Virus record (IMG/VR): IMGVR_UViG_3300036823_000120
Span: 1-64,000 of that record
Direction: 5' to 3' (one strand)
Origin: a virus
Length of the DNA: 64,000 bases
Shown here in pieces: positions 1,852-56,544 of the stretch; the first letter of the stretch is position 1, and each line of letters starts with the position of its first letter. A program made the translations under genes and the position numbers. The notes under the pieces were generated by a model. The model ran no database searches. It saw only the letters and a program-made list of their open reading frames with translations, and was not told the origin of the DNA.

Positions 1852-2522
1852 GGTAACCGGGCGGTTTTTCTGGAAAAGCTTTTCGGTAGCTGTTTCATGC
1901 GGAGCATGAAACAGCTTTTAAGGCCGCTAGGCGTTCGCTGGTCGCGTTTTCGGCTTTTGCGTGTACGGCCCCGATCACATTAAAGAGGATAAGCCAACCA
2001 ACGAAGGGCTAGGACGGTCAGACGGGTTTTCACCGCCCGATCACCTAGCTTTTCTACGACCTGCCGTTCTCGCCTTACTTCCCGTTTCCCGCAAGGCGAG
2101 AACGGCAACCACTGTCTAGATTCCCGACACTTTCGAGCGGGCGGCTGACTTTCTGTCAGCCTTCAACCCGCCCCTGCCAGTTTGGCAGCCCACCACACCC
2201 ACCTGCCAAACTGGCAGCCCAACATGCGACACGGGGAGCGGAAACCGTCCGGCCGGCGGTTCCCGCTGCAACCCTTCCTTGTCTGAAAGAAACGTAGCAC
2301 AAACTCCGACGGATGCAACAAACTTTCTGCGGATTCCTGCCCACGATCGCGGGGTCATAGGATAGCAGCGGTTAAGATTCTGTCTGGCCCCAGTGGGGTG
2401 TCAAAGACTCGCTTAACCTCCACAAACATTGCACACGATGCGGCCATGTGCAACTAGAATCTAAAAGAAAACTTGCTTTTGCTCCCGCGTGAAATTTAGT
2501 TGCGATGTCAGCAACCGCTGCC

Positions 2523-2762
2523 GACACCATGATCCTAGCTCCAGTTGTGAGGGAACGCAACTCGGATCGGCCAGATTTTCCAGAATCGATTTTAGCGGCC
2601 CTAGCGTGCGTCTGGCGAGCCGATCGGCTCGCGGATGGATTCTGACTCGCCCGAACCACGTTCGGCTCGCACACGCGATGCTAGGGCGTTAGAATCGAAT
2701 TTAGAGAAAACTCGCCAATTCGAGTTGCGTTTCCTCGCAACTGGAGCTAGGATCATGGTGTC
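2523..2762. repeat. 42-bp inverted repeats (2523-2564 / 2721-2762) flanking a GC-rich core
   Basis: 40/42 complementary; both mismatches would be G-U pairs in a plus-strand RNA. Confidence 0.95.
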
Positions 2763-2865
2763 AGTGAGACGCAACCCACTGACTCGCCGCAAGGCGAAAC
2801 TTTCACGCCAAAGCATAATTTAGAAAGGGCATGAAAACTAAGGCCAGAAAAAGTTTCTCGATTAC

Positions 2866-2893
2866 TTGACACGGGCCAGATCGGTAGTAGAAT
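2866..2893 (+). promoter_or_regulatory. Promoter TTGACA-16-TAGAAT
   Basis: Near-consensus hexamers. Confidence 0.75.
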
Positions 2894-2974
2894 ACATAGG
2901 TAATGAACCAAAAATAATTCTGGTTCATGTCCTATGGGCCAGTCAAGGGAATCTGGAAAACTTTCCGGGATTAG

Positions 2975-3003
2975 TTGACAGGCCATCGAAAGTGTGCTAA
3001 GGT
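2975..3003 (+). promoter_or_regulatory. Promoter TTGACA-17-TAAGGT with extended -10 TG
   Basis: Near-consensus hexamers. Confidence 0.8.
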
Positions 3004-3052
3004 TAAATAGTGAAGGTAATGCAAACAGAACTCGCCTAGCGGGTACTCTGTC

Positions 3053-3067
3053 TGATCTTTGAAAACT
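3053..3067 (+). promoter_or_regulatory. rrn boxA-like motif TGATCTTTGAAAACT
   Basis: Resembles rRNA-operon antitermination boxA; about 50 nt downstream of a -10. Confidence 0.6.
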
Positions 3068-3195
3068 TACTTTACTGTCGGACCAACGGTTCGGAATTAT
3101 GCACATGGTCTGTCGATCATGTGATAAGCAACCGGATTCTTGGAACGTGCGGCCAACGTCTTACAAACGTAACCGGACAAAACTAGAATTCGCTG

Positions 3196-3223
3196 TTGAC
3201 AAGTTCCAAGCACGAGCTACAGT
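3196..3223 (+). promoter_or_regulatory. Promoter TTGACA-16-TACAGT
   Basis: Near-consensus hexamers. Confidence 0.7.
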
Positions 3224-3246
3224 AAAGTAGGCAAAGAACGGGAAAC

Positions 3247-3261
3247 TGATCTTTGACAATT
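3247..3261 (+). promoter_or_regulatory. rrn boxA-like motif TGATCTTTGACAATT
   Basis: Second copy, about 25 nt downstream of a -10. Confidence 0.6.
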
Positions 3262-3567
3262 TGGTAACGCTATGTGATGGATACCATCATTGTCGTGAGA
3301 CAAAGATGAATTCCTGCATAGGTCAGTGAGACAAACATCCCACACTAGAGTCTCTCTTTAGTGGCCGGACGTTCCAAGTACCCCGAAAAAGGGTAGGCTA
3401 GGTCTAAAATAGGGTATAAGCCTAAACAGCCCAAAACCGTCACTTTTAAACCGAAAAGTGCTTTTTAAAAGCACTTTTTAAAAAGCCTAAAATTTTCAAA
3501 CGCTCGAAAATGGCTGTTTTTGACCTAAAATCGGTAAAATGGTCATGTTTAAGGGCCAAAATAGCCC

Positions 3568-3710
3568 ATAAGCAAACTAAAAGGCCGATAAATGGTCGAA
3601 TCAAGGGCCATAAGCAAATTAGAAGGCAAGCTGGTAAATGGCCTAATTCAAGGGCCATAAGCAAGTTAGAAGTCTGATAAGCAAATCCCAACTTCGGTGA
3701 TAAGCTTATC
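3568..3710. repeat. Five ATAAGC motifs, including a 25-bp direct repeat and palindrome GATAAGCTTATC, upstream of ParB-like gene
   Basis: ATAAGC at 3568, 3610, 3657, 3677, 3700; TCAAGGGCCATAAGCAARTTAGAAG at 3601 and 3648. Confidence 0.9.
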
Positions 3711-3736
3711 TCACAACCAACACAAGGAACGCTCCA

Positions 3737-5047
3737 ATGGCCGCTAAGAAGAACATCAACGTAAGCGTCCCGACAGAAGCTCTTTTGAGCGTCAACCAAC
3801 TTACGGTTGACCCGTCGCTCAATGTGCGTATGCGGAAGGGATCGGAAGTCTATGGTGTGAAAATCCAAAACGATGGTTACGATCTCGATACAATGATCGC
3901 ACAAGTGTTAGAACGTGGCAAGATTCTGGAAGCCATTCACGTTTCTCTCCGAAAGGATGGAACGTATGTGGTTCTCCGGGGCAACCGTCGAACTTTGGCC
4001 GGGCAATCGCTTCTCTCGAATCCAGATTTAGCCGATGATATCCGCAAGGAACTGAACGCTACTCGCGTTCTGGTCTTCAAGGAACTCACGGCTGAAGAAG
4101 AACGCGAAAAGATCATGGATCAAAATTCCAAGAGCTTTTCACGAAGCGAAATGATTCGCTACGCTTGGTCGCTTCGCCAGCAAGGGCAAAGCTTCGAGCG
4201 TATCGCCGTGGATAACTTCGAGATGTGGGGGCAATTTGGGCGAAATGCCCGAACGCTCGCAAAACTCGCGGATATCCGTGCGATTCCGGCCGGAGACATC
4301 GACACGCGACGCAAAGCCATCAAGACTTGGCTTCGCGGAACAGTTGACGAGTACGTGATTCCGGCTTTTGATCTTGGGCCAGTCGTTCAGAAGGCATGCA
4401 TGCTGTCCGAAATGGAATTGGACGGTCTTCTGAAAGGTACGGATGATAAGCCGTACTTCTACACGACCCGTGATCCGCAATCACGTCTGAAAAAGCTGGG
4501 ACAAGCACGAGAGAAGGATGGTTCCAAGTGGACTCATCAGTTGGGCGGCGAGAACTTCAATGCCCAAATCGAGGAATATCACAAGACTGATTTTCCGACC
4601 GCAGGTGCGGCTACTCCGGCTGTTGAAACGCCTAAGAAGCGTCCCAGCGTAGCAGAACTCAAAGTTCACATGGGTACTGCCCAATCGTCTCCGGCACGAA
4701 TGGCCTACAGTATTGCAATCGGTAGTACGGAACCTGAGTTCATCAGTCGGGATCAATCTGTCTCTCTCCTCGAAGCAAAGGAAACGCTTTTCCTTCAATT
4801 CGCTGAGACGCTCAAGCCTGATGCGAGCGTGAATCTGAGAGATATTCTGACTCAGATTTTCTTGAGGGACAACATCCTCGACTTCAAGCAAATGCTTGAA
4901 AAGCATTCAAATGCCGCTCCAATTGAGACGGCGCCAAACAACGAAGCCCCGAAAGGGGCTGATTCAGAAGTGGAAACCGATTCGGATACCACGGAAACGG
5001 GAATTCCCGAAGAGGAAAATGGTACGTTTCCGCTAGTCAGTAAGTGA
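3737..5047 (+). CDS. ParB/Srx N-terminal-domain protein, 436 aa, acidic C-tail
   Basis: DPSLNVR...EAIHVSLRKDGTYVVLRGNRRTLA (GxRR motif). Confidence 0.8.
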   Translation: MAAKKNINVSVPTEALLSVNQLTVDPSLNVRMRKGSEVYGVKIQNDGYDLDTMIAQVLERGKILEAIHVSLRKDGTYVVLRGNRRTLAGQSLLSNPDLADDIRKELNATRVLVFKELTAEEEREKIMDQNSKSFSRSEMIRYAWSLRQQGQSFERIAVDNFEMWGQFGRNARTLAKLADIRAIPAGDIDTRRKAIKTWLRGTVDEYVIPAFDLGPVVQKACMLSEMELDGLLKGTDDKPYFYTTRDPQSRLKKLGQAREKDGSKWTHQLGGENFNAQIEEYHKTDFPTAGAATPAVETPKKRPSVAELKVHMGTAQSSPARMAYSIAIGSTEPEFISRDQSVSLLEAKETLFLQFAETLKPDASVNLRDILTQIFLRDNILDFKQMLEKHSNAAPIETAPNNEAPKGADSEVETDSDTTETGIPEEENGTFPLVSK

Positions 5048-5154
5048 TAATTAGGAATCGTTGCGGCCACTAAAAAGATACTCTAGTGGTAATGGTGATG
5101 TGTCTACAATTCAAATGCTCCTTACTCTATCCCGTACCAAACAAGGGAGAAAGT

Positions 5155-5355
5155 ATGACTCAAAAACTTAAGTTTCAACTCATCAATGATGCTCGCACAA
5201 ACGACATCAAATTGATTGTTGAAGTTCACACAATCGAAGATGATCCCAATTGTTTGGATGTGACTATCACATCTGATCGTGGTTCAATCGTCGATGCGTG
5301 TCGCGTGCTACACTCTGAGCTTTTCACTTGGATTGAAGCCAGGAAGGACTGGTAA
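5155..5355 (+). CDS. Hypothetical protein
   Basis: AGGGAG RBS before ATG at 5155. Confidence 0.65.
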   Translation: MTQKLKFQLINDARTNDIKLIVEVHTIEDDPNCLDVTITSDRGSIVDACRVLHSELFTWIEARKDW

Positions 5356-5358
5356 ATA

Positions 5359-5667
5359 ATGAGTGAGAATCGAATCTTGTCTCTTGTGTATGACATCTTC
5401 GCTAGTATCGAGGATGAAGCACAATTGACAATCTTCTACAATCACGTTGCTGAGTTCAAGGGAAAGCTTGACAACATGAACGTGTTAGAATGCGGCTTCC
5501 GTCAAGATGAAATCGCATTGGTCTCTCTGGTAATTTTATCAGGTATCATTATACCTGATGGCAAAATCAAAATGATTAAAGCCCGTAGAGAACGGACAGG
5601 CGAATCATTGACCGCAGTTGTGCCGGAAGCTAGGAAGCTTTTCGCACAACGCAATTGGCAATGGTAG
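5359..5667 (+). CDS. Protein with C-terminal ribosomal L7/L12 CTD-like segment
   Basis: KIKMIKARRERTGESL resembles KIxxIKxxRExTGxGL. Confidence 0.5.
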   Translation: MSENRILSLVYDIFASIEDEAQLTIFYNHVAEFKGKLDNMNVLECGFRQDEIALVSLVILSGIIIPDGKIKMIKARRERTGESLTAVVPEARKLFAQRNWQW

Positions 5668-5733
5668 TGGTCTCAAACCGGGATAGAGTAAGCAGCATTT
5701 GAATTGAGCAAGAAACAAACCCAATGGTGAAAC

Positions 5734-6326
5734 ATGAACAAGTTTCATGCCAAACTGTTTGACAGTAATGGAAAGCTACAAATTAGCTTTCAAACTAGTA
5801 ATCTGTCAAACATGCTCTCAATCATTCAAATGGAATTGAATGATTGGAAGAATCCGCTAAATGTCACACGCATCGATGTATATGAGTACAGTACATTCAT
5901 ATACAGAAAGAACATTGGAGTTACAAATGCACTATGAAATTTGGCGTGACACGAACTACAAAGCCATGACATGCGGCGAGTTCCATTCTGCCCTAAAATG
6001 GCTTATTACACATGCCAAAGACTATGATCCAAAAGTATTGACTTGGATAGACACTATGGCAGGATGCGTAATCACGCTTCAAGTGAAGACACCAAAAACT
6101 ACCACCTTCTACCGCATCATTAGATGCGAAGAAAGTGGGAACGTTACAAATGCAACGTGATATTGGAACAAATCTCATTTTCTGTGCAGTATATTGTATA
6201 GTCATATTTATGATATGGCTATTCAAATGTAGTACATTGAAATGGATCATGTTACTAGCGATAGCTCTTTGTAGCTATAAGCTCACTACAATGCTTTTAA
6301 AGAAACCCGCCATTTCTGGCGGGTAG
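5734..6326 (+). CDS. Three short hypothetical ORFs (5734-5937, 5927-6160, 6150-6326; last is hydrophobic)
   Basis: Overlapping start/stop chain ending at a terminator. Confidence 0.6.
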
Positions 6327-6330
6327 TTTC
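6305..6330 (+). terminator. Probable intrinsic terminator
   Basis: ACCCGCCA-TTTC-TGGCGGGT stem at operon end; weak U-tract. Confidence 0.55.
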
Positions 6331-6394
6331 ATTACAAATCAATATTTGTCTCAAAACCCGTGGCACATGTCGCGGGTATCTTTGCTTATGAAGT

Positions 6395-6550
6395 AATGCA
6401 AGTGACATGTACCGCGTAACAAGTGACACATAGTAAAAGCAAATAACAAGTGACACGTACCGTGTAACAAATGCAAGTGACACGCACCATGTAACAAATG
6501 CAAGTGACACGTACCATGTAACAAATAGTAAAAGCAAATAACAAGTGTCA
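6395..6550. repeat. Iteron-like array of CAAGTGAC-containing units (about 27 bp)
   Basis: AATGCAAGTGACACGTACCATGTAACA-type units interleaved with ATAGTAAAAGCAAATAACAAGTG. Confidence 0.9.
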
Positions 6551-6989
6551 AAAATCATGTCTCACAACAATTCAATATTAAAATGGTCTATGTAACAACT
6601 AATAGACAATGAAAATCATCTCTTGTTTCAAACACGTTTCAAGGGTAGTAAGCTTTGCAAAAGCTTTGCCTTAAATCGTCAAACCTATAACAAACACAAA
6701 AGTTGTACAACATTATTAACTATTACTAGACTCTATACTACTGTATGACGACTTACAACTTTATTTCTAGTTCATCATATAGTAGTAGTCTAATTGGCAA
6801 CATAAACAACACTTCTAATGGAAGTCAGAATTCCTAGAATCGTCCCAGTGAGCCGATCGCCCAAAAGTGGGTCAGTACACATCTAACCAGAGATTTGCCC
6901 GCCTGAGCGATGCCAGGCCCCTTAAACGGCTCATTAGCCCTTCGCTCGCCAAACGACCCGAACCCCTGGACGTGGCGTTCGCTCAAAAG

Positions 6990-7064
6990 AACAAATGTTG
7001 TACAACTTTTGAGTTGCTTTTGTCAAAATAACAAAAGCAACTCAAAAGTTGTACAACATTTGTT
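6990..7064. repeat. Perfect 34-bp inverted repeat with 7-nt loop
   Basis: 6990-7023 is the exact reverse complement of 7031-7064; an 18-bp part recurs at 6697-6714. Confidence 0.97.
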
Positions 7065-7065
7065 T

Positions 7066-7791
7066 TTACACGTCAATTGACGAAATGACTGCTATTGGAC
7101 CATACAATGAAATTAATTCATGTATAGTTCCATGATACTTAACACCACTTAGAAGACCAAACATGAACTTATGATTTTTACATTTTGCTTTAAATGTTAG
7201 GTCTCCACTGATTAATTCTACGCCTCGATTTAGTAAATTACCTAAATGCTCAAATGCTGCTTTCTTCTCAAAATGCTCATCTGTTGAGCCAAGTCCCCCG
7301 TCTCTAACAATCTCTGGCATGTCACAAATGGCCGAATCACCAACAATAATTTCTACTATAGGAATTAATTCTAATTTGAATTGAGCAATGGCAGTTCCAG
7401 CCGGTAATACGAAATGCCCACTCTTTCGCCACTCTTGGATAAATGCTTTTTGCTTATCGAGAAATGCATCTTGAGACAGTAAATATTCAATAAAATCGGG
7501 AGATGGTGCATTGAAAGTCATGATGATAAGCCACTCGTCCTTTGGCTTACAAAAATCGCTATCTATACAGCCGGCATGAACTTCAAGTCCAGCTAATGCA
7601 CGTCCCGATTTCTCACAAATACGTGCCCGCAAGTTGGGACTCATCTCAGCAGTGATTCCGGTCTTAACCGCTGTCATCACTCCCGGATAGAACACAGCAT
7701 CAGCAGAGCTAAAAATGTCATACCAACCCGCCTGCAACGTAGCTTTTGCAATGTGGCCAGTCTTCAGTTTGAAGAACAAATCCTGATTCAC
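7066..7791 (-). CDS. dut: Trimeric dUTPase with insertion and C-terminal extension
   Basis: AGWYDI, EKSGRA, AGCIDSDF, IAQF, RDGGLGST motifs. Confidence 0.85.
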   Translation of the reverse strand: MNQDLFFKLKTGHIAKATLQAGWYDIFSSADAVFYPGVMTAVKTGITAEMSPNLRARICEKSGRALAGLEVHAGCIDSDFCKPKDEWLIIMTFNAPSPDFIEYLLSQDAFLDKQKAFIQEWRKSGHFVLPAGTAIAQFKLELIPIVEIIVGDSAICDMPEIVRDGGLGSTDEHFEKKAAFEHLGNLLNRGVELISGDLTFKAKCKNHKFMFGLLSGVKYHGTIHELISLYGPIAVISSIDV

Positions 7792-8002
7792 TTCTTAATC
7801 TCCTTTTGAGCAACTTTGAGAGTCCGTCGAGCAAAATACTTGCCAGCTTCATCAAAAAAGAATTGAGTCTGACAACCGTTGATGCAAGCATTTGAATCCA
7901 TTACAAGTGGATTCCACAAATTCCATACGTTCCAGTTGATCTAAGTTCCAAGGTGCAAGTTTCTTCTGCCAGAACTCGGAAGAAAGGTTAGAATATGTTC
8001 CA

Positions 8003-8203
8003 TCAAACACCTTCAAAGAATGTACTAAGTGAGACGTCAAATACTAAAGCTGCTTTGCGTAATATTGAAAATGGAATCAATTTCTCTCCATTTTCATGCT
8101 TCATCATCCAATGATCATTGGATTCAAGCTTTCTACTAGCTTCCTTGAGGATCAATCCACACTTTGAGCAATTAACATCAATGAATGCACTCATTATGAG
8201 CAC
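8003..8203 (-). CDS. XRE-like HTH protein
   Basis: KHENGEKLIPFSILRKAALVFDVSLSTFF. Confidence 0.5.
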   Translation of the reverse strand: MLIMSAFIDVNCSKCGLILKEASRKLESNDHWMMKHENGEKLIPFSILRKAALVFDVSLSTFFEGV

Positions 8204-8514
8204 CTTGCATTAGTGGATAGGTATTTAAAGCAAGCAGTCTAAAGCTTTGTTAATGGTCTCCACATCCGCTAAGCTTTACAACTAATATAGCATTATTCGA
8301 ACTTGTTAATGCTAAATTAAGACCTGCAAAGCTGTCCAGAAGGTTGCAATCAAACAATGTTCCATTCATGGAGTCTTCAAATAGCCCACTGGCTAACGTT
8401 TCAAGCCAATCTAGTACGAATTGCCTACCTTTAAGAGCATTATTTTCTTTGTAAAGCTTATCACGAACCATGCGAACAGTATCTAAAGTTAGACTTTCAG
8501 TTCCGATCGGATCA

Positions 8515-8829
8515 TTAGGTCTCCTTTTTAGCTGAAAGATATTGAATAACTTCAATTGCAAAATCATTAGGAGACTCAACTAATGCTTTTGATATAAATT
8601 CTTGCTGTTCATTTTGATTCAATTTAGCTAATAGGTAGCCAATTGATACGCTTATACGCTCATTTTTCAGCAAAATAGTACAAGCATTATTCAACTTGTA
8701 AAGTTGAAGATAAAATATAACATATTCTACGGTTTGTTGGTACGCTTTTACTACTTCAGACAACGTGAGTCTACTGTTTTGGTTCACAAAATCAGCTAAT
8801 TCACGGCTATTTTTAGTATTTGCTTGCAC
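8515..8829 (-). CDS. Stand-alone paralog of the ParB central HTH region
   Basis: LQLYKLN..ISVSIGYLLAKL..EQQE..SPNDF aligns with LQLVKLN..IGLANAYALAKL..KQDE..SPNEF of 54739-55830. Confidence 0.7.
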   Translation of the reverse strand: MQANTKNSRELADFVNQNSRLTLSEVVKAYQQTVEYVIFYLQLYKLNNACTILLKNERISVSIGYLLAKLNQNEQQEFISKALVESPNDFAIEVIQYLSAKKET

Positions 8830-9777
8830 AAAGGCTCCTTTAAGTTAAGCTTATCACACCAAATATGGTGTTTCTCCTTGATGTGAAGTCTCACTTTAGT
8901 CTCAAAAGCATATAGATCTTTGATGCAAGGATCTTTTAAAGCGTGTCCTTGCATTGAAGAATTCAATCTAGTCAATGCAATAGCACAAATCAGTGGAATT
9001 TGGTCATCCATTACCAATTTAATTGCTTTTGAGACAAGTTTCTTGAACTTAAGCATCTTAATGACCCATTTTGGGTCTCTACAAATCTGCTTATCACTGA
9101 TGGTTAGCACGTTACACTCAACTTGGGAACGTCCCAATGCTTTACAAGCACGAAAACTCATTAACAATCATGAACCATTCGCCACGTTCCACGACAGAAA
9201 TTGGTTGAATAAGTCCAATCTCACGTACACTCGATACCAATTCTTTCATTCGGTCCTCATAATCCTTCGTGCAACTTTTGGATCGCAAGTAACAGCTTCT
9301 TCCAGATACAATCTTTGAGTAATAAGATGCAATTTGCTTAAAGCCAATGCCGTAAGCAAAGCAATTTGATCTTGTCTGACCAAATGAAGCACTTCTCAGA
9401 CATGAAAAGTGGCTCAAAGTGCTTACCATCAGATCGCTTAAATACTTTATCTGAGGGTTTTTGCTTAAAATTGCCCCATATTTCATTGTTACATTTGGTT
9501 TCAGCTTACACAAGAATCCACCTCCCCATACTGAGGAGCAATTGACAAGATTTTGACCATTAAAATAGAGCATTGCTCCATCACCAAGCGACACAAAATC
9601 GGCATAATTCCATTCTGTATCAGCAAATGTGTATACGCCAGCCTTCATTGCAGCTTCTTGGAACGTGTAACGTCGGTCAGATTCACGCTCATAAGCAACA
9701 TGAATAGGTGTGTTGCATTCAATATCAATTGATATATTTATCATATGTGCGTCCCTCTGAATCTGTGTAAGACACAT
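8796..9777 (-). pseudogene. ParB-domain gene split by a frameshift at about 9155-9165
   Basis: ELVSSVREIGLIQPISVV..MIVN in one frame, FRACKALGRSQVECNV in the next; GxxR motif lost at the junction. Confidence 0.7.
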
Positions 9778-10008
9778 TGATTGTGGCTTTGACTTTGATG
9801 AAAACTGAGAGCATTAAAGTCTCACTTATAGGCCAATAGCCCTTTTTATCGATGAAAAGCACGATTCCATCGCCCAGAGACAAGAAACAAGGCTCTTTTG
9901 TATCTACCAGAGCATAAAGCCCTGGATTAAGAACAACCCATTCATAGTTGTTCCATGTGTTTGAATAAAAATAGAATGGCTCATCAACATTTACTTTGAT
10001 TTCAAACT

Positions 10009-10440
10009 TCATTTCAACACCAGAATGTGAATCAGATTGGCGATATTCTTATCTAAGCATAGGGGTATCAGCCAGTTCAGGTTAAATATGCAAGCACTTG
10101 ATAGTGGATGCACGGCATACCAGTGAACTGGTTCATTTTCATCTTGATTTTCGGGAATCTTATAAGTCTCTAACGTCTTTGTAAAGACGTGAAGCTTATA
10201 ATCACGTGACTCTAACACGGCAACGTGATTAAATTCTGGAATAATGAAGCCAGTTTCTTCCTCAATTTCTCGAACTATGGCATCGTGAGGAGTTTCTCCA
10301 GGTTCAATGTGACCACCTGGAGCATTGAGATGACCAGCTTGCCAATCGGGACGTGCTTTGCGTATCAAACATACAAGCTTTTGTTCAGGATCAAATACAA
10401 AAGCAATGCTATACATTTGAATCGTGCGAGTTTTAGTCAT
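10009..10440 (-). CDS. Nudix hydrolase (MutT-like)
   Basis: GGHIEPGETPHDAIVREIEEETG Nudix box. Confidence 0.9.
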   Translation of the reverse strand: MTKTRTIQMYSIAFVFDPEQKLVCLIRKARPDWQAGHLNAPGGHIEPGETPHDAIVREIEEETGFIIPEFNHVAVLESRDYKLHVFTKTLETYKIPENQDENEPVHWYAVHPLSSACIFNLNWLIPLCLDKNIANLIHILVLK

Positions 10441-15126: not shown

Positions 15127-15128
15127 GA

Positions 15129-17027: not shown

Positions 17028-17028
17028 T

Positions 17029-31806: not shown

Positions 31807-32334
31807 TCACCGAACAAAGATGTGCATGTAGCGTTTGCCATCTCCACCCATCGCCCATGCAGCACCAGCGTAGGTGTAGTTATCGTATACGTCGCAACTC
31901 ATCCAACCATAAGAAGCAGGATAAGCAGCACAACCAGCAGAGGAGGCATAACTACCAGAAGGAAGAAATTGAAAATCATTGCCCGTATGCCCAAACATTT
32001 GCCTTGAGGCACGAAAGCTTGCACAGGATTGGGCGGCTTGAGTAAGACCGGCGTCGAATATGTACGGTCGCAACCCATGCATCGCCCTCTTCGCATTGAC
32101 TTCTGATAGAGCTTCATTCCCTCCCTCCGTAGGCTGTGAGTTGAAACTCACGGGTTGTGAGTTGAAACTCACGGGTTGTGAGTTGAAACTCACGGGTTGA
32201 TAAGCCGGCTGTTGAAAATTACTTTGGCCTTGAACCGGATAATACTGAACCCGATTCCTACGAAGCAGTGGACCACTGTAAGCATCCACACTGGCCAAAA
32301 GCACAACCAAGCTACTCAGGATCAAACGCATCAT
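31807..32334 (-). CDS. Secreted CAP/SCP-domain-like protein with QPVSFNS repeats
   Basis: Signal peptide; VNAKRAMHGLRPY..D..LTQAAQ..A....FGH. Confidence 0.75.
   Translation of the reverse strand: MMRLILSSLVVLLASVDAYSGPLLRRNRVQYYPVQGQSNFQQPAYQPVSFNSQPVSFNSQPVSFNSQPTEGGNEALSEVNAKRAMHGLRPYIFDAGLTQAAQSCASFRASRQMFGHTGNDFQFLPSGSYASSAGCAAYPASYGWMSCDVYDNYTYAGAAWAMGGDGKRYMHIFVR
32136..32198. repeat. Three 21-bp tandem units, each holding palindrome GTGAGTT-GA-AACTCAC
   Basis: Palindromes at 32136, 32157, 32178 separated by GGGTT. Confidence 0.95.
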
Positions 32335-35140: not shown

Positions 35141-35229
35141 AGCTCCGGTGTGTACTGAATCATAGCACACATACAGACAGATGGTAGCCCAGTTCACTCG
35201 ATTTTTATTAAAGTACAAACGTTAGAATG

Positions 35230-39525: not shown

Positions 39526-39546
39526 TTTAGCCTCATTTTGGAATTA

Positions 39547-45717: not shown

Positions 45718-45902
45718 ATTTTTCTCGAAGTTTGAATCTAGTAATATTGAGCATCTGAATCACAGATTTCAATAGCTCCTCTTGTTTTTCGTAATTTAAT
45801 TCATCTGCGGCTTTTTCAAGGTCTTCTTGCGCTCTTAATATCGTATACGTTGCATCAGCTTTTATTAGAAATGGCTTGAGTGCCGTTTGCCCCAAATGAC
45901 AT

Positions 45903-46247: not shown

Positions 46248-46696
46248 AGAGTGTTAATGCATGCATATGCTCCAAAGTGCTTAATAGCAGCTTCGTTATA
46301 AGCTTTTGCTGCATCCTCCTCTTTATCAAAGTAACCTAACCTCATAATTTTGTTATTAACAAAAATATAAGAATCCCATTTCCTATATAATTTGTTATAA
46401 CTTACTCCTTTATATTTGGAGCTACAGTGTGTTTGTCTTTTAGACTTATTCTTTTCATTGTCGCTTCGTGTTGCAGCTCGCAAATTAAATTTTTGATTAT
46501 TTAACTTATTACGATCAATATGATCTATAATTTGAAAATTTAATTTGACTGTTAAAAGCTTATGCATATAGGTATTATCGCCATTGTCTCTGGCATACCC
46601 ATTACATAAGTACCAAGTTCTTAAGGCAAAAAGAAGCCAATCTTCATCATCTACGAGTATAAGCAAATCTGAATTTATTAAGCTTATTGTCTTCAT
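46244..46696 (-). CDS. HNH-AP2 homing endonuclease
   Basis: DHIDRNKLNNQKFNLR; SKYKGV; LGYF..E..AAKAYN. Confidence 0.9.
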   Translation of the reverse strand: MKTISLINSDLLILVDDEDWLLFALRTWYLCNGYARDNGDNTYMHKLLTVKLNFQIIDHIDRNKLNNQKFNLRAATRSDNEKNKSKRQTHCSSKYKGVSYNKLYRKWDSYIFVNNKIMRLGYFDKEEDAAKAYNEAAIKHFGAYACINTL

Positions 46697-49059: not shown

Positions 49060-49216
49060 AGCTCATCCTTCGTGAACAAGTGAACAAAATATGCAAAACA
49101 CGCGAGATTCTCGCAGTTTTGATGCCACCAATCATCTTCATTAAGGACAAACCAATCTACTTCATAGATCATACACCATTCAATAAGCCTATTAATTTCA
49201 ACAGGCTCAGTTAAGA

Positions 49217-50143
49217 TTATTCACTTTTATCACCAACTAATGCCTTACTTACCCAAGAAGGCATAATAAAATCTTTACCTTCTTTCCTAGCTGCTGCTTG
49301 AACTTCATTAAGCAATTCAATTGTACTAATCTTTGCGGTACACCATGCTGCAAATCGAGTTGCTAAACACGCACCAAGAGTATCATAAATGAGACCACCC
49401 ATTTCAACTATCTCTGGTCCCTTTCGCTCACGAGTTTTCATTGCGTCGCTACTTCGTTGAATAGAAGGAACAACGCTGAGAGATTCTCCTTTTTCGCGCT
49501 TTTCTTTGACTTTCTTCACAAATTCAATTTGTTGTTCAACTTTTCGAAGACTCGCACAGTGTTTGATTTGTGCTTGAGTAAGCAAACCAGCAGCGGCAAC
49601 TGCTTGAATTTCCTTCGGCAAACTCAAAAGAGCTTTACGAATTTGCACCCATCCACGAGAAGTACCAGTGAGATCGGCAACTTCAACTTCATTGAAGTGA
49701 ATATCAAAGTAATATTTAATTGCATAAGCTTCTTGAAGAATATTTAATTGCTTACGATGCAAATTCTCTCTTAGGTTCTGTGTTCGTGCGGCTGTTTCAT
49801 CAAGACCTTCTTCAATGAAACATGGAATCTTTGAATGCTTCTCAGCAACGACAGGATCAGCATCTAAGGCGTTAATTTCAAATGCCGTAAAACGTCTATG
49901 TCCTGCCACAATACGGTATTTCTTACCTGATATAGCATCGTGTGGTTGTACAGTAATTGGAGTATCAAGCTTTCGGTCCTTGATATCTCGTGCAAGATCA
50001 AGAACATCGATTGGGCTTATGTTTCCACGACAATTGAAGTTTTCATCAAGAAAAATATCTTCAATAGGAATTAAAAATACTTTGTAGCCAGTTATAGGAT
50101 CAATATCAACTGTTTCTTGATTATTTGCAATTGCTATAGACAT
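49217..50143 (-). CDS. ParB-family protein (N-domain plus HTH)
   Basis: PITVQP..YRIVAGHRRF; ENLHRKQLNILQEA; EVADLTGTSRGWV. Confidence 0.9.
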   Translation of the reverse strand: MSIAIANNQETVDIDPITGYKVFLIPIEDIFLDENFNCRGNISPIDVLDLARDIKDRKLDTPITVQPHDAISGKKYRIVAGHRRFTAFEINALDADPVVAEKHSKIPCFIEEGLDETAARTQNLRENLHRKQLNILQEAYAIKYYFDIHFNEVEVADLTGTSRGWVQIRKALLSLPKEIQAVAAAGLLTQAQIKHCASLRKVEQQIEFVKKVKEKREKGESLSVVPSIQRSSDAMKTRERKGPEIVEMGGLIYDTLGACLATRFAAWCTAKISTIELLNEVQAAARKEGKDFIMPSWVSKALVGDKSE

Positions 50144-50297
50144 TATTTTGGTCCTTGCTTATTCAGAGCTAAAAGCTCCTTGTATATTAACTCATGTTCT
50201 ACGATTAACTCATAAGGTTTCACTATACCTTGGGAGTTTCTTTGACTTTTTAGTAATATAAATTTTTCAATCTCATTTATTTGATTCATTAAGACTC

Positions 50298-52931
50298 CTA
50301 GTTTCTAGAATCACTTGTTACTCCCATTTCATGGGCTTTTGCAGCTTCTTGTTGAGCTTGTTTCATTTCTTCTAGTACCAAACCCATACTCAAACTTTGC
50401 AAATCACGTTTGCGTTTGAGATTTTTTAATACATAAGCATCAGTTGGAAGATGGAGCAAATCAATTATAGTAGCTCCTCTTTCTACTGACATACCTGCCC
50501 TATGTATGCGATCTTCTGATTGCAATCTAGACTCACCATTGAAATCATTGCTGAAATAAATGATGGCTTTTGATGCCGTCAGTGTCAGGCCCATTCCCGC
50601 TGATCCAGCGTGCCCAACAAAAGCTATCTTTTGATCGTATTGCTTAGGATTCTGAAAGACTTTCAAGAATTCTACGTTATCTTTTGGCAAGAAGTTACCA
50701 TATGGCACCCATCCACGTCCGTCCACACGCATCACTTGCCAACCAAGCTTAGTCACATGGTCACTAACTCGATCAATTGTTCCTGTGAAAGCTCCATAGA
50801 TAACAATTCTATTCTCATCTTCAAAATCATCTGAGAGAAGTTCTGTAAGAGTATCAAATTTTGGACTATCGACTGTTTTTACTTCTCTCTTAATAACATT
50901 AGTTGTTCCGCGGCCTTCGCAAGCAGGACACTTAATTTTTTCATTAAGATCGTTATCGAAAAGCTCTCTATTGCCTTTACAAGTTGTACAAGTTGCAGTA
51001 GATTCGACAGTTTCAATATATTGAAAGCCATCTGATAACTCACGAAGCTTTGTAAGAGCTTCAATTGCATTGCGACAACCAACTTGTATCAAACTAGCCG
51101 CACGAATCATCGGCAGACTTGGCTTTATATTAATTTCTCGATATACCTTATCAGGTAGATCAAGACAATCTTTCTTGTGTTGAACTAATACAAGTCCACT
51201 CATTCGCCGATAAAGTTGACTAATTTCATCTTTCAAAGCTATATATTCATGGAAGTTTTCTTTGTCTTCTTTGGCATAATGATTAGCATGAGAACTAAGC
51301 TTACCACATTTATTACAGATTGCTTGACCACCATCTCGCCATGCAATGAATTTCGGGAACCGACCACCAGTGATATCACCAACGTATTCAGTAACAGCTA
51401 ATCGTTCCTTGAACTTGTTGACATCACCTTCAATCAAGAAGCCTGGACAAGCAGTTTCACATTGCCAATACCAATCTACAGGGGACTTGGGAGCGGGAGA
51501 ACCACTCATAAGTACAATGTATGCATCGTGTCCATAGTTATTACGCATACTTTCAGCAACATGAAAAGCTGATTGTGAGCGTTGAGCAGTTGGTGTCTTT
51601 AATTTTGAAGATTCATCGAATATAATTCCACGAGGTGGCATTTTCCGTGGAATCCAATTTTCAACTGTTTTCTTCAATTCATCATAAGTCATAAATATTG
51701 GACGTATGAAAGATTTCCAATTCCAAAACTCAAGACGAACACTTGCAATTGATGATTTTGTTCCAATGTACCACCAATCTGCGATACCACTTCGTTCCAT
51801 TGCCTCTATTGAGGCAAGAGTCTTTCCACAATTATGTACTACAATACCATTTGCGACAAAATTTCTATAAGGATCATCACAAATAACATCATAGACAAAT
51901 AATTCTCCATTATTTTCAATACTTATAATTTTATCTTTATGTGGTATAAATTGACATTTCTCAGTATGTAGATTTACATAATTTGTTTGGCCATGTAATT
52001 TTGCATGCTTACTACTTGAACTTAATAGTTCCAAGTTTTCAATTTTATTATCATTTTTAATTTCATTTTTATGATGAACTATCTCATTTTCTTTAATATA
52101 TCGTCCAAGATGTTCTTCCATAATTAAAATGTGTTCATATACTCCACCTGTAGACCATCTTGGATGCTTGTTTTTTAAGCCTCCAACTCTAATATAGCCA
52201 TCTTTATCTTTCCATTTACCATTAACTAAAATTTCATCACCAATATTTAGCTTTTCTGCTGAAATATAAGTATTATTATTTACAGCAATTTCGTGATCTA
52301 AAGTTACACAAATTTCATAACCTAATTTTGTTTTTATTTTTAAAGTAGACTTTTTACCTTTGCTTAAGACATTTTTAATTTTATTTAACTTTAATATCCC
52401 AGCACAATTACTTCGAATATAAGTTTCTATTCCTAAATCCCAGCATCTGCCTTTTAAATTATGAAATTTCTCAAAAAGATTTTTTAGTTTTATCTCAAAT
52501 CCTTTTCCAGCTCTATTTACATGCACGAGTGCTTCACCATCAACGCATCCCATTTCCGCAGCTAGTATACATTGCTTACGTAGCAAAATATGACCAATCT
52601 CATATTTTTGATGCGTATATACAGGTCGTTGAAAAGTTAGCTTATCAACAAATGATTCAAGTGAAGCGTCGTATCGAGAAAAAGGATTCTTACCTTCTAA
52701 GTGTTCAATACGAAATTCATTTCGTCGTGACTTATTAACGCGCCAAACTTTCATTGGATTATCTTCGTCTCTACCAAGCCATTTTGAACCTTGCATCACT
52801 TTCAATTTATCTTTGAATTCGAAAGCTGAACTAATATAATAATACTTTGAATCTTCATAAATAGTAGCTGGATGACGAAACTGCTTTCCTTCAAACTTAG
52901 TTTGTCTTTCAGCTATAAAATTAATTGCCAT
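50298..52931 (-). CDS. SNF2-like SF2 helicase with intein
   Basis: EMG|CGKT Walker A after splicing; FDESS; MSGSP; GLTLT; QSEDRIHR. Confidence 0.9.
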   Translation of the reverse strand: MAINFIAERQTKFEGKQFRHPATIYEDSKYYYISSAFEFKDKLKVMQGSKWLGRDEDNPMKVWRVNKSRRNEFRIEHLEGKNPFSRYDASLESFVDKLTFQRPVYTHQKYEIGHILLRKQCILAAEMGCVDGEALVHVNRAGKGFEIKLKNLFEKFHNLKGRCWDLGIETYIRSNCAGILKLNKIKNVLSKGKKSTLKIKTKLGYEICVTLDHEIAVNNNTYISAEKLNIGDEILVNGKWKDKDGYIRVGGLKNKHPRWSTGGVYEHILIMEEHLGRYIKENEIVHHKNEIKNDNKIENLELLSSSSKHAKLHGQTNYVNLHTEKCQFIPHKDKIISIENNGELFVYDVICDDPYRNFVANGIVVHNCGKTLASIEAMERSGIADWWYIGTKSSIASVRLEFWNWKSFIRPIFMTYDELKKTVENWIPRKMPPRGIIFDESSKLKTPTAQRSQSAFHVAESMRNNYGHDAYIVLMSGSPAPKSPVDWYWQCETACPGFLIEGDVNKFKERLAVTEYVGDITGGRFPKFIAWRDGGQAICNKCGKLSSHANHYAKEDKENFHEYIALKDEISQLYRRMSGLVLVQHKKDCLDLPDKVYREINIKPSLPMIRAASLIQVGCRNAIEALTKLRELSDGFQYIETVESTATCTTCKGNRELFDNDLNEKIKCPACEGRGTTNVIKREVKTVDSPKFDTLTELLSDDFEDENRIVIYGAFTGTIDRVSDHVTKLGWQVMRVDGRGWVPYGNFLPKDNVEFLKVFQNPKQYDQKIAFVGHAGSAGMGLTLTASKAIIYFSNDFNGESRLQSEDRIHRAGMSVERGATIIDLLHLPTDAYVLKNLKRKRDLQSLSMGLVLEEMKQAQQEAAKAHEMGVTSDSRN
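51831..52547 (-). mobile_element. 239-aa intein carrying an HNH endonuclease
   Basis: Starts CVDGEA; TLDH block B; ends NFVANGIVVHN|C; internal VHHKNEIKNDNKIENL. Confidence 0.92.
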
Positions 52932-53399
52932 AACTTCCTCAAGCTAATACAAACGTTTTATCTTGTAAATGCTTAATCGTTACATTTAGAAAAATACCAT
53001 ATACATTATTAAAATGAGTATACAGTAAATTTGCTAATACTCTTAATTCTCTTGGTGTATCTTCAGTAAGATATTTTGTTACAAATGTTAAATATTCTTC
53101 AATTGATCCTGTAATAAAGCCTTTTGAGTCTCTATCACAATAGGCTGTTGTAATTTTTAAGTAACCAGTGTTTATAAGTAAGTCAACAACATCTTGAGGC
53201 AATTCAAAATAAAAAGTTACAAATATCCACTGATAAGATGGATTTAAGTTAAATAGGCTCCTAGCCAACATAGACAATTTGTCAAGTGGCTTGGAGCTTT
53301 TCTTATCAATCTCAGTAAGTTCAATACACTTTGAAAGTATATTAAAATCAATTTGTGATTGAATCACAGATTGTAATTTATACATTATTTACCTCCAAA

Positions 53400-53469
53400 C
53401 ACCCCGATAGAGAGTCGAACTCTATTAACCAAACTTTGTAAAAGATGGTTAAATACCATTATTCGGAGC
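53400..53469 (-). ncRNA. D-arm-less tRNA-like element
   Basis: GCTCCGA/TCGGGGT acceptor; TAGAG-TTCGACT-CTCTA T arm; TTAACCA/TGGTTAA stem. Confidence 0.5.
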
Positions 53470-53512
53470 GGATGAGGAACTGTCGCTTCACTTACAGTTC
53501 CTCACCTTGTTT

Positions 53513-53878
53513 TTAATGCCTCAGATATTCTATGCCATTGATTGTAAGCTTTGCAGGAAGTTCTGGCATTGGACCACCAACAGTGAGTGGCAAGCTCGAA
53601 GGCTTTCCAGTAAGCACAGCCGGCCCTGTTTGCAGAATCGTAGTCACTTGTGGAACTGCACGGACAACTGGAGCAGCCATATTATACGAAGAAGTAGACG
53701 AAAAGCTGCTTTGAGTCGTCGAAGACGAACAATTACCATTCGAACAATTACCATTCGAACAATTACCACTCGCAGTGGCCTGATGGCGACCCTTACCAAA
53801 GATACCAAACGGACCGGCAAACGTAGTGGATGCAACAGCCAGAACCAGAAGCATTGCAAGCATAAATTGCTTACGCAT
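53513..53878 (-). CDS. Secreted low-complexity protein with GNCSN repeats
   Basis: Signal peptide; SGNCSNGNCSNGNCS; AGGAG RBS. Confidence 0.7.
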   Translation of the reverse strand: MRKQFMLAMLLVLAVASTTFAGPFGIFGKGRHQATASGNCSNGNCSNGNCSSSTTQSSFSSTSSYNMAAPVVRAVPQVTTILQTGPAVLTGKPSSLPLTVGGPMPELPAKLTINGIEYLRH

Positions 53879-53971
53879 TACTTTCTCCTAAAAGTTAAAA
53901 GTGCCTGTACCGTATTACACGGTATTCACATGTGGAGGTTACAGGCTTATACCTCTACCCAACAAGGGATA

Positions 53972-54667
53972 TTATTCTCGTGATACAGCACCTTCAGGCT
54001 TTTTATCCACGAGTTCAACTTTGGTCTCAGGAGGATTCTTAAATTCCTTTAAGACATTATGATATTCTTCAATATTTGGTGTATCAAATTGTTGCGATGC
54101 TGATACAATTTGTGGACCATACCAATTATATTTCTTTGTTTCTATGAACTTACTAGAAATGATTGCACACTTGTCAATCAAAGCTTTAAAGTTCGCGGCT
54201 TCATTCTTTGCAGTCTTTGACGCCATCAGATACGTTGCAAATCCATGACCTGGGATGAAAATCAAAAATTGTGGACCACACATTGCACCATCACCAAAAA
54301 TACCACGATCTGCAATTTCACGAACTTTCTTGAAGCCTTCACTATTAGGATCATAGAAAGAAATTGGCTTATCGCCAGAAGTAGACAATGCAATGGGTCT
54401 CCATGCACAAACCCAACATTGGACATTTTGTCCAAGGTCAATAATTGCTTTTCCCTTGAAAATTGCATGGTTACCAACTCTTACATCGCCACGCTGAACA
54501 GGCACACTCGTAGCACTCATAAGCTGAACATATGGAAGATAATTTCCAATTGTTGCTAAATCGTCGAATGCTGCTTCAGTATACCTGTCAGGCACCAATT
54601 CCGAAGACTTAGGCATTGCAGCAATTGCATTACTTGCTGAATTCGGATTTACAATCTCAGTGTTCAT
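53972..54667 (-). CDS. Hypothetical replication-module protein (possible SSB)
   Basis: 231-aa ORF between ParB and helicase; LPYVQL and WYGP motifs; function from context only. Confidence 0.45.
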   Translation of the reverse strand: MNTEIVNPNSASNAIAAMPKSSELVPDRYTEAAFDDLATIGNYLPYVQLMSATSVPVQRGDVRVGNHAIFKGKAIIDLGQNVQCWVCAWRPIALSTSGDKPISFYDPNSEGFKKVREIADRGIFGDGAMCGPQFLIFIPGHGFATYLMASKTAKNEAANFKALIDKCAIISSKFIETKKYNWYGPQIVSASQQFDTPNIEEYHNVLKEFKNPPETKVELVDKKPEGAVSRE

Positions 54668-54738
54668 TCATCACCTTTCAAAGTCAAGATCATTGGATGT
54701 TATAAGCTACCACGAAATGTGGTAGCTTACGTTAAAAC

Positions 54739-55830
54739 TTACTGGCCATTCTGAGGCACAAAGGACGGGTCAATTGGTTGATTCAGATTGACAGGTACAA
54801 CAGGGTGACCATTAACGCCAACACCGGCAGTAGTTGTAACTGCTTTTGCGGCCTGATCTTTCTTTTGTTGGCGTTCTGCTTCACGCTTCTTCTTATCCTC
54901 ATCACGTTCCTTCTTACGTTGCTCATACCGATGACGATCAAATTCGACAGATTCAGGATCGAGATGCATTGAATACTTGAGAGCAATTTCAGCAGAAGCT
55001 AGGCACATAAGCTTTACTTCATCAGGTTGATTCTGAACCTGTTGAAGAACAAGGGTTCCAACCTTAGACGAAGTGAATTCTTTCTTCGCAAAAGCGGCAA
55101 GTTCTTCCTTGAGAGTCACAGGACGTTGAAGTCGAGGAACAGGAACAAACCCTTCCTCAGCCGGAGCACGTCCTTCAGAGCGAGCATCACGAATCGCCTT
55201 ATAAGCAGAAGTTGCGATTGGGATGAATTCATTCGGGGACAACGAAATTGCCTGATTCGCAAGTTCATCTTGCTTTTCAGGAGGCAACTTGGCGAGTGCA
55301 TAAGCATTCGCCAACCCGATGTCACCACTATCAACCAACTTTTGGATAGGCTCATTAAGCTTCACGAGTTGCAAGCGATCACGTAGCCAAGAGTTCGACT
55401 TACTAAGACGTGAGGCCAACTCAGTCATAGTTAAAAGCGGATTTGCACTCATGATCTTGATGAGTGCCTTTGTGTATTGTACCGCCTTAGTTTCAATCCT
55501 ATGTACATTGGCAAGAATCTGAGCTTCAATCAAATCCGCGTCTTTCAGCGAACCAATTTGTGCAGGGATTTCATTAAGACCTGCATCCATTGCAGCATTG
55601 AAACGGTGTAAGCCATCAATAAGACCGTAAAGGATTTCACCACTTGCAGGGTCTTTAATTTCTCGCACCAAAATGGGATTCATAATCCCACGCTTTTTCA
55701 CACTGTCTACAAGTTGGATATAATCTTCATCTTGCTTATCGACAGCGGTGCGAAGTGCTTCACTGTTCTCACGAATCTTCTTAAGAGGAATCTTTGCTTG
55801 TGTCGTATTCTTGAAGTTAAAATCGTCCAT
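54739..55830 (-). CDS. ParB-family protein (N-domain, HTH, charged C-terminus)
   Basis: LVDSVKKRGIMNPILVR; LIDGLHRFNAA; ANVHR; ELASRLSKSNSWL. Confidence 0.9.
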   Translation of the reverse strand: MDDFNFKNTTQAKIPLKKIRENSEALRTAVDKQDEDYIQLVDSVKKRGIMNPILVREIKDPASGEILYGLIDGLHRFNAAMDAGLNEIPAQIGSLKDADLIEAQILANVHRIETKAVQYTKALIKIMSANPLLTMTELASRLSKSNSWLRDRLQLVKLNEPIQKLVDSGDIGLANAYALAKLPPEKQDELANQAISLSPNEFIPIATSAYKAIRDARSEGRAPAEEGFVPVPRLQRPVTLKEELAAFAKKEFTSSKVGTLVLQQVQNQPDEVKLMCLASAEIALKYSMHLDPESVEFDRHRYEQRKKERDEDKKKREAERQQKKDQAAKAVTTTAGVGVNGHPVVPVNLNQPIDPSFVPQNGQ

Positions 55831-55831
55831 T

Positions 55832-56086
55832 TTATAATTCTGGCTTCTTGGGTGGTGGTACAGTTGCAATCTGGATGGGTAACTGCGTTATCCCTAATTC
55901 CAGTGCAGCTTGATACCGATAATAGCCATCTATAATGGTATATAAGCCATTCGTCTTATGCTGTACAAGAAGTGGCTCAAGAATACCATCAAGGCGGATA
56001 TCTTCTCGTAACTCGACGAAAAGCTGTCCGCTAGGCTGTGAAGGTTTGGGTGGTTGCCTGATTTCCATGATGTTAACTATTAACAT
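55832..56086 (-). CDS. Minimal ParB/Srx N-domain protein
   Basis: LREDIRLDGILEPLLV..YTIIDGYYRYQAALELG. Confidence 0.85.
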   Translation of the reverse strand: MLIVNIMEIRQPPKPSQPSGQLFVELREDIRLDGILEPLLVQHKTNGLYTIIDGYYRYQAALELGITQLPIQIATVPPPKKPEL

Positions 56087-56190
56087 GTTATAAGCTCCTA
56101 CCTGATAAGCATATTTTCATTTCTAATGTCTAGTCTGCTTTTCTCCTTATTCTTATATTCGTTTTAATATTTCCTAGATGCCGCAATGGG

Positions 56191-56544
56191 CCTCTACTCA
56201 TATAACCGCAGTTACAGTCAAAAATCCCAAAATAATTCTGGCGGCTCGCTCCACCGACCAGCATCGCCCTGGCGAGCCGTTTGGCGGCTCTCACGTCGCC
56301 CAAACGGGGCGAACGCGATCGAGTCTGAAGATCGGGCCGGGCGAGACGATCGACGGGCAGACGCGAGCTAATGAGCCGGTCTCTCGATTGTTGTTCATGT
56401 TGCGATTTAGACTACTACTATATGAAGGAATTAAAATGAAATTTGAATGGGTCATAGAGTAGTATATAGGAAGTAAATGAAGAACAACACGATTCCGGAC
56501 TATTTTGGGATTTTTGGCCGTAACTGCGGTCATATAGGTAGAGG
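56191..56544. repeat. About 50-bp imperfect inverted repeats (56191-56241 / 56495-56544) flanking a GC-rich core
   Basis: CCTCTAC..ATAT.ACCGCAGTTAC.G.CAAAAATCCCAAAATA on both arms. Confidence 0.92.

Follow-up and report, generated by a model that had tools for sequence, protein, structure and literature searches.

The first 64 kb (the whole stretch analysed, here called the window) of the 94,582-bp IMG/VR record IMGVR_UViG_3300036823_000120, which represents a 94.6-kb uncultured phage, include three non-coding loci, A (2523-2762), B (6697-7011) and C (56191-56544), each with a GC-rich core between inverted repeats (IRs). An earlier note on this DNA had described them as one IR-core-IR architecture, forming a family of cis-acting sites for a common factor. 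Our analysis indicates that, rather than a single element bounded by repeats, the three loci are most likely control regions in the intergenic DNA where operons meet. We favour, with a probability of roughly 0.4, the reading that their GC-rich modules are clusters of putative protein-binding sites within these control regions. Of the cis-site family proposed earlier, the kinship of the cores stands, and a one-mismatch copy of the primase iteron in the cores of B and C suits sites recognised by a shared factor, but there is no single IR-bounded element: in their likely roles, the IRs are a promoter pair in C, operator/terminator sites in B and a self-hairpin in A. The architecture is a variant of known phage control regions, in which a GC box module is combined with promoters, operator/terminator sites and, in one case, a self-hairpin.

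The unit common to the three loci is a GC-rich non-coding module of 130-155 bp, carrying G[C/T]GAGCCG(A) boxes that often form inverted pairs. As had been noticed before, the cores are much richer in GC (0.59 in A, 0.58 in B and 0.66 in C) than the genome (0.37). The sharing of words between cores, also reported earlier, proved significant against 500 dinucleotide-preserving shuffles of the cores, with 23 shared 8-mers (3.8±2.5 expected), 12 shared 9-mers (1.1 expected) and six shared 10-mers (0.3 expected, p about 0.002). Seven of the nine genome copies of GCGAGCCGA with at most one mismatch fall inside the 437 nt of the cores, as do 9 of the 19 copies of GAGCCG. Gapped local alignment gave a z of 4.8 for A(+) against C(-) and, when B(+) was compared with C in either orientation, values of 3.0 and 4.7. 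All three cores can be aligned over colinear anchors (AGAATCG, GCGTCTG, G.GCCGATCG, CGGCTC and GCGATGC), with indels and a low identity between copies of about 55%. By these measures, the relationship of the three cores goes beyond base composition.

For B and C the relationship extends further. B(+) and C(-) share an 81-nt AT-rich dyad module (6731-6811 and 56389-56469) that is 79% identical and found nowhere else in the genome; within it, a block of 37 nt is 92% identical (E 3e-8), and this block of 37-40 nt is nearly unchanged between the two loci while the remainder has diverged. In both cases an AT stretch (30-33% GC) abuts the GC-rich stretch. In addition, the 12-mer common to the cores of B and C is a copy, with one mismatch, of the primase iteron, and GCTWATGAGCC is present six times in the window (0.06 expected), four times in the primase iteron array and once in each of the two cores. 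B(+) and C(-) are paralogues beyond the core. Neither the paralogy of the AT dyads, nor the iteron link of the 12-mer, nor the third copy of the C arm described below had been recognised in the earlier note.

The genes of the phage are arranged in blocks of alternating direction: small early genes with promoters of the TTGACA-N16-TAAGAT type at 0.47-2.4 kb (minus strand), a block at 2.9-6.2 kb that includes a gene for a 436-aa ParB-like protein (plus strand), a long operon of 49 kb at 7.07-56.1 kb (minus strand), the primase operon at 56.8-62.8 kb (plus strand) and the structural genes at 62.4-93.8 kb (minus strand). Therefore, A is found at a divergent, B at a convergent and C at a divergent strand switch, in agreement with the placement given before. 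The IRs were also where they had been reported, those of B being 18 nt long, and their arms are indeed unrelated in sequence between elements.

In C, the arms (56191-56234, minus strand, and 56501-56544, plus strand) have 44 nt and are 89% complementary, and the lack of full identity between arms speaks against assembly chimeras. The left arm is a promoter-like GGGATTT-N16-TTATA element pointing to an operon that encodes a mini-ParB and a ParB protein, and the right arm is likewise promoter-like and points to the operon of the DUF5906 primase-helicase. This element of about 45 nt (GGGATTT-N16-TYATA) has exactly three copies genome-wide, the third being at 93,832-93,872 of the genome, and all three are sense-oriented and located 60-275 nt upstream of the first genes of the mini-ParB/ParB, primase and structural operons. 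One complete relative (G006) has four copies of the arm, the two extra ones lying 62 and 79 nt upstream of same-strand open reading frames (ORFs). When the arms of the relatives were scored as sigma70 promoters, the outward scores were higher than the inward ones (Wilcoxon p 5e-4), and many arms read as outward -35/-10 pairs. Because of their sense orientation, their position at the heads of operons, the outward-facing scores and the extra copies in the relative, the arms of C are predicted to be promoter/operator copies and not terminal repeats.

Between these arms, the GC-rich core of C (56235-56388, minus strand, 66% GC) carries four GAGCCG boxes and one GAGACG variant, an iteron-like GCTAATGAGCC at 56367-56377 and a terminator-like hairpin at 56255-56240, and adjoins the AT-rich dyad module (56389-56469, minus strand), paralogous to 6731-6811. 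The iteron array itself (56604-56782, plus strand) lies upstream of the primase gene and consists of 5.8 copies of a 32-bp unit with GCTTATGAGCC and GCTTATCAG boxes; a single inverted iteron box is present at 56102-56110.

The arms of B are of a different kind. Its left arm (6697-6714) is an 18-nt site, which we call X, of the form CAAAAG-GTTGTACAAC and sequence CAAAAGTTGTACAACATT; the site is found inverted at 6994-7011, and again at 7043-7060. Inside the arms are the AT-rich dyad module (6731-6811, plus strand), with dyad arms TATACTACTGTATGA and TCATATAGTAGTA, a promoter-like TTACAA-19-TATAGT and a conserved leader, and the GC-rich core (6832-6986, plus strand, 58% GC), with a GTGAGCCGA box at 6848 and the iteron-like GCTAATGAGCC at 6928-6938 on the minus strand. 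The X sites at 6994-7011 and 7043-7060 belong to a 37-bp hairpin (6987-7067) with T-runs on both strands, whose stem reaches -53 kcal/mol on either strand and is placed directly after the last minus-strand ORF, as expected of an intrinsic terminator. We predict that it is a bidirectional terminator ending the long minus-strand operon. Degenerate copies of X bracket the copy of the late promoter at 93.8 kb of the genome. The arms of B would thus be copies of a palindromic putative operator, CAAAAG-GTTGTACAAC, two of which form the terminator hairpin.

Element A is a 240-nt imperfect palindrome, whose arms (2523-2578 and 2707-2762) could be extended to 56 nt with 89% complementarity and enclose the GC-rich core (2579-2706). 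When single-stranded, 2515-2770 folds as a near-continuous hairpin of 105 bp (z -15.9), with a free energy of -168 kcal/mol and 10 G-U pairs on the plus strand, and of -158 kcal/mol and five such pairs on the minus strand. The core includes GCGAGCCGATCGGCTCGC, a perfect 18-bp palindrome (2615-2632) made of two inverted GCGAGCCGA boxes, and a third box at 2662-2670. On both sides there are early promoters of the sigma70 type, one leftward (TTGACA-16-CAGAAT, 2377-2404, minus strand, about 120 nt from A) and the other rightward (TTGACA-16-TAGAAT, 2866-2893, plus strand, about 105 nt from A). We interpret A as a GC module duplicated in inverted orientation and centred between two divergent predicted promoters. 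The perfect palindrome, in a phage that encodes a ParB-family helix-turn-helix (HTH) protein, would correspond to the palindromic 13-18-bp format of a ParB/KorB site.

The repeat array that had been noted near each element is present in all three cases. Besides the iterons next to C, there is a GCTTATGG-type array near A (3566-3664, minus strand), upstream of the gene for the 436-aa ParB-like protein, and a CAAGTGAC-type array beside B (6406-6550, minus strand), verified at 6447-6526. As a separate observation, the CAAGTGAC/GTGTCACTTG-type arrays, at 6406-6550 of the window and at 93,940-94,370 of the genome, form an inverted pair with the entire early region, some 6.6 kb, between them. Next to A, the segment 1880-2400, downstream of the leftward promoter at 2404, has up to 68% GC, no credible ORF and several hairpins with 15-bp stems, which are better folded on the minus strand (-33.7 against -27.3, and -31.3 against -26.6 kcal/mol).

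The comparison with relatives was based on phages with 43-60% primase identity, the closest primase relatives (P0002-P0006, 73-78% identity, mostly Logan assemblies) lying outside the set of compared loci. The earlier expectation that the architecture would be kept in relatives was borne out for the arm pair of C and the layout of B, but not for the interior of C, nor for A. Of 59 relatives, 25 or more carry an IR at the position of C; it measures 16-64 nt, encloses a spacer of 70-280 nt and ends 16-320 nt (mostly 70-115 nt) ahead of the primase start. In 25 relatives the spacer between the divergent arms has a GC content of 0.17-0.46, below the mean of the locus in all except one (L056), against 0.52 in C of this phage, with a maximum of 0.73 over 60 nt; the GC-rich insert is found only here. 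Since the spacers of the 25 relatives are AT-rich, the core within C is evidently a lineage-specific addition. No counterpart of A was found in the relatives, the nearest IR in one of them (G007) enclosing a real small gene.

The layout of B recurs in two relatives. G007, of 92.7 kb and with a primase of 47% identity, keeps the order of blocks and, in the same orientation, the same convergent junction, formed by two X' sites (CAAAAAG-CGTGCACG), about 90 nt of AT-rich sequence, about 140 nt of GC-rich sequence and two further X' sites. All seven X' sites of this genome fall into two clusters, one at the junction and the other where the structural operon begins, on either side of a diverged copy of the promoter arm of G007. 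At a convergent junction of the second relative (G011, 85 kb, primase 43% identical), self-palindromic IR arms occur with a 40-bp AT hairpin and 140 nt of GC-rich core; at its 3' end this core reads GACGGCGTTC..CATAAGA, similar to the GACGTGGCGTTC..CAAAAGA of B. Across phages, the likeness of the cores at the sequence level is faint. Because the layout of B recurs in these two genomes and the core of C is present only in this lineage, B appears to be the ancestral, family-conserved junction element, and C to carry a second copy of its interior.

Sequence searches gave little else. The elements and their flanks have no meaningful close homologues among INPHARED phages (megablast, blastn), and A, B and C had no matches in about 100 relative loci (blastn, nhmmer). 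Pattern scans with the AT-dyad block and the promoter arm, exact or gapped, returned one chance coding match in IMG/VR and none in the JGI metagenomes, and no loci related to that of the 436-aa ParB-like protein were found in IMG/VR. The 18-bp palindrome is not repeated in the four Planctomycetota metagenome-assembled genomes (MAGs) and one Opitutales MAG that have related primases. Some relatives show GC-rich features of their own near parB. In L075 (2940-3370) and L074 (2910-3430), runs of GC-rich hairpins (CAGCCGAGT...ACTCGGCTG), every one of them with palindromic GATTAATAATC boxes at its sides, lie between parB and the promoter pair, and in L073, a relative with 38% GC, a GC-rich non-coding island of 240 nt (3290-3530) beside parB includes a T-arm-like GGTTCGAATCC on its minus strand, with no tRNA, transfer-messenger RNA (tmRNA) or Rfam call.

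We favour the binding-site interpretation of the GC modules because the boxes cluster in the cores, frequently as inverted pairs, have a connection with the iterons, lie beside or between promoters, and occur in a phage that encodes ParB/KorB-like proteins. Proteins with ParB_N and HTH_ParB domains are encoded at 54739-55869, 49217-50143 and 3737-5047 (Pfam), with a weak KorB match, and a further ParB paralogue lies at 55832-56086; the mini-ParB/ParB operon lies leftward of C, and two ParB/KorB-like HTH proteins adjoin A and C. We infer that the GAGCC-type boxes may be bound by a phage protein that also reads the neighbouring iterons, for which the primase-helicase and any of the ParB/KorB-like HTH proteins are candidates. 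Once bound, it would form nucleoprotein complexes coupling promoter control, and possibly replication, at operon boundaries. In this mechanism, the arms of C would be divergent copies of a middle/late promoter element, the third copy of which would head the structural operon, with the degenerate operators of B bracketing this late promoter. C would have arisen when the interior of B was copied between the divergent promoters beside the primase iterons.

Several observations weigh against this interpretation. To our knowledge, and judged by eye, the box is unlike any parS, OB or operator consensus. The alignment of A with B is weak (z 1.0-2.1), and the enrichment of the boxes comes partly from paired copies in hairpins, corresponding to fewer independent events than the raw counts. 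The box spacings show no helical phasing, and the relatives have no excess of GAGCCG in the corresponding intergenic region, so the box itself is lineage-specific. Finally, an AT dyad with a promoter-like TATAGT, and terminator-like hairpins at the ends of both cores, would suit a transcribed unit equally well.

Such a unit is the basis of a second explanation, in which B and C are paralogous genes for small non-coding RNAs, with a promoter in the AT dyad (TTACAA/TTCAAA-19-TATAGT), a 5' leader (TCTAAWTSGCAACATRAACAAC), a GC-rich body of about 150 nt and a terminator, and A is a long hairpin RNA. The promoter-like boxes have an identical spacing of 19 nt in B and C, and the best-conserved block is just downstream of them; B ends in its 37-bp hairpin and a T-run, and on C(-) the terminator-like hairpin at 56255-56240 is followed by a T-rich run. 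Moreover, here and in G007 the junction element lies between operator sites of the kind that surround the late promoter, which would suggest a promoter inside it. However, Rfam gave only chance hairpin hits for the elements and no match at gathering or E-value thresholds, and the cores fold much like their shuffles (z -1.1 for B, -2.2 for C and 0.2 for G007). The weak consensus fold amounts to -14.75 kcal/mol for B and C and to -4.8 kcal/mol for four sequences, with no convincing covariation among these 2-4 very divergent and poorly aligned sequences, and nothing in the phage is complementary to the leader at up to two mismatches. In the case of A, the plus strand has twice the G-U pairs of the minus strand (10 against 5) and a fold better by 10 kcal/mol, but the G-U bias is not significant. 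Overall, we consider the small RNAs possible, though rather unlikely.

Somewhat more doubtful is the proposal that B is a replication origin, with initiator-binding IR sites, an AT unwinding element and a GC segment, that C is a second origin or an auxiliary site activated by divergent transcription, and that A is a hairpin priming site. The iterons directly upstream of the DUF5906 primase-helicase gene, together with the AT module at 56389-56500 (33% GC), reproduce the anatomy of an iteron-type origin, and AT-rich DNA abuts GC-rich DNA in both B and C. An AT-rich spacer between the divergent promoters is kept in the family, the cores of B and C have an iteron-like box, and the cumulative GC skew reaches its minimum near 56 kb. 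Nevertheless, the skew runs with transcription and so says nothing of its own about an origin. B is also 50 kb away from the primase gene, and neither DnaA boxes nor other known motifs of origins could be seen.

It is quite improbable that the cores are functionless relics of a GC-rich fragment from a higher-GC relative or host, copied into three intergenic regions by illegitimate recombination. The absence of the core inside C from the 25 relatives, the foreign look of the early region (49% against 37% GC) and the low identity between core copies, with their indels, agree with such an origin. On the other hand, relatives with 43-47% primase identity still have, at the same junction, the order of operator IR, AT dyad, GC core and operator IR, the block of 37-40 nt has hardly changed between B and C, and the source sequence was absent from the phage, plasmid-free, viral and metagenome searches.

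A small protein encoded by the cores of B and C, on the B(-)/C(+) strand, is very unlikely. ORFs 6986-6834 (minus strand) and 56178-56462 (plus strand) share 9 of 22 residues (BLASTP E 2e-4), and this frame scores +28 with BLOSUM, against -13 and -11 for the others, with several synonymous differences; yet there is no ribosome-binding site, the ORF of B starts at a TTG just downstream of the terminator hairpin, the likeness is confined to 22 codons (2 of 19 match elsewhere), and the ORF over the core of G007 is unrelated. Least credible of all is a mobile or invertible segment with terminal IRs, of the kind found in miniature inverted-repeat transposable elements (MITEs): the IRs of 18-56 nt around segments of 130-280 nt, and the short non-coding interiors, recall such elements, but the arms differ between A, B and C, no direct repeats flank them as target-site duplications, the C arm has a solitary third copy and behaves as a promoter, no transposase, integrase, invertase or recombinase family was found by Pfam in about 110 ORFs, and it is the interiors that are conserved, not the ends. 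Three further candidates were discarded: GATC/Dam sites form no cluster (305 sites observed, 321 expected), an R-loop-type G-rich transcript disagrees with a core GC skew that is about zero or negative, and an attP site or tRNA fragment is unsupported, there being no tRNA or Rfam hit and no integrase.

The proposed binding sites and the proposed origin have partial parallels in known replicons, two of which bear on the origin. In satellite phage P4, the primase-helicase alpha needs two distant iteron clusters, ori and crr. The P4 system shares with this phage a primase-helicase gene accompanied by direct and inverted iteron clusters at more than one distant cis site, although the box sequences are unrelated and the cores of B and C have one iteron-like box each. 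The oriV of RSF1010/R1162 has iterons together with segments rich in GC and in AT, and carries ssiA and ssiB on a large IR. The resemblance lies in an iteron array by adjoining AT-rich and GC-rich segments and a large IR, in a replicon with its own primase; in contrast, the arms of C are promoter-like and not priming hairpins, and there is no homology. Among known control regions with divergent promoters and operators in phages and plasmids, the KorB-OB system of plasmid RK2 (PMC11790492) also has palindromic sites at or near the promoters of several operons, the same operator being used at a few places, and ParB-family HTH proteins encoded beside the sites. It differs in that we are dealing here with a lytic-looking tailed phage and not a plasmid, no ParA or KorA partner was found in this phage, binding is predicted only, and the GC-rich module is far larger than one operator. 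The sites of this phage have no known likeness in sequence to OB or parS.

The whole record has 37% GC and a completeness rating of 100% in IMG/VR. Its final 120 nt match its initial 120 nt at 115 positions, with the first mismatch at position 107 (1-160 of the window and 94463-94582 of the genome were compared), so that the genome is probably circular or terminally redundant despite its 'linear' label in IMG/VR. The overlap sits within a palindrome-rich stretch, with IRs at 85-153, and the assembly probably broke at a palindrome. The phage is tailed, with genes for a long tape-measure protein, a major head protein, a portal and a large terminase. It also encodes the DUF5906 primase-helicase, a family A DNA polymerase, an intein-containing helicase, a class II ribonucleotide reductase, a D12 methyltransferase and several ParB-like proteins; neither a T7-like RNA polymerase nor a phage sigma factor was found by Pfam. 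The intein, located in the 877-aa helicase (50298-52931), carries an HNH endonuclease, and five HNH and four AP2-domain ORFs are dispersed through the genome. The early region of about 6.6 kb has 49% GC, compared with 37% elsewhere. Near-perfect IRs of 28-29 nt surround one or two small genes at 5107-5134/5679-5706 of the window and, in G007, at 2410-2438/2750-2778 of L115, and such bracketed small genes may represent gene cassettes that recur in the early region. Inside the coding block, a perfect 21-nt tandem repeat (TGTGAGTTGAAACTCACGGGT, 3.1 copies, 32135-32199) has a hairpin as its unit.

No close cultured phage was found. Homologues of the primase amount to 1,634 metagenome proteins at E <= 1e-50, and relatives of it are also present in MAGs of Planctomycetota, Opitutales and others. 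Those with 37-40% identity are embedded in multi-megabase contigs of Planctomycetota MAGs (L086, L087, L088 and L092), a placement that suggests prophage or plasmid-like forms with hosts in the PVC group (Planctomycetota, Verrucomicrobiota, Chlamydiota). In one relative (L007), a full tmRNA (831-1155, 143 bits with Rfam) is encoded together with a tRNA-Gln, at a distance of about 3 kb from the primase gene.

A wider and frankly speculative extension, which we regard as improbable, is that in a large phage family, probably living in Planctomycetota or related phyla, a network of ParB/KorB-like proteins controls the early-middle-late programme, and perhaps also replication, with a separate class of sites for every paralogue. 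These classes would be (i) GCTTAT iterons, (ii) operators with the CAAAAG palindrome, (iii) CAAGTGAC arrays and (iv) GAGCCG boxes, and the junction element would be a loading or nucleation hub, duplicated at the primase promoter. Should the modules be relics or ordinary operators, our results would amount to routine phage annotation. If our preferred reading of the loci is true, however, they would provide a cis-regulatory map of a widespread, never-cultured phage family, with a multi-copy promoter element at every main operon, a palindromic operator only at the late promoter and the conserved junction, and a GC box module tied to the primase iterons, and could give insight into how a phage without ParA makes use of multiple ParB-like proteins.

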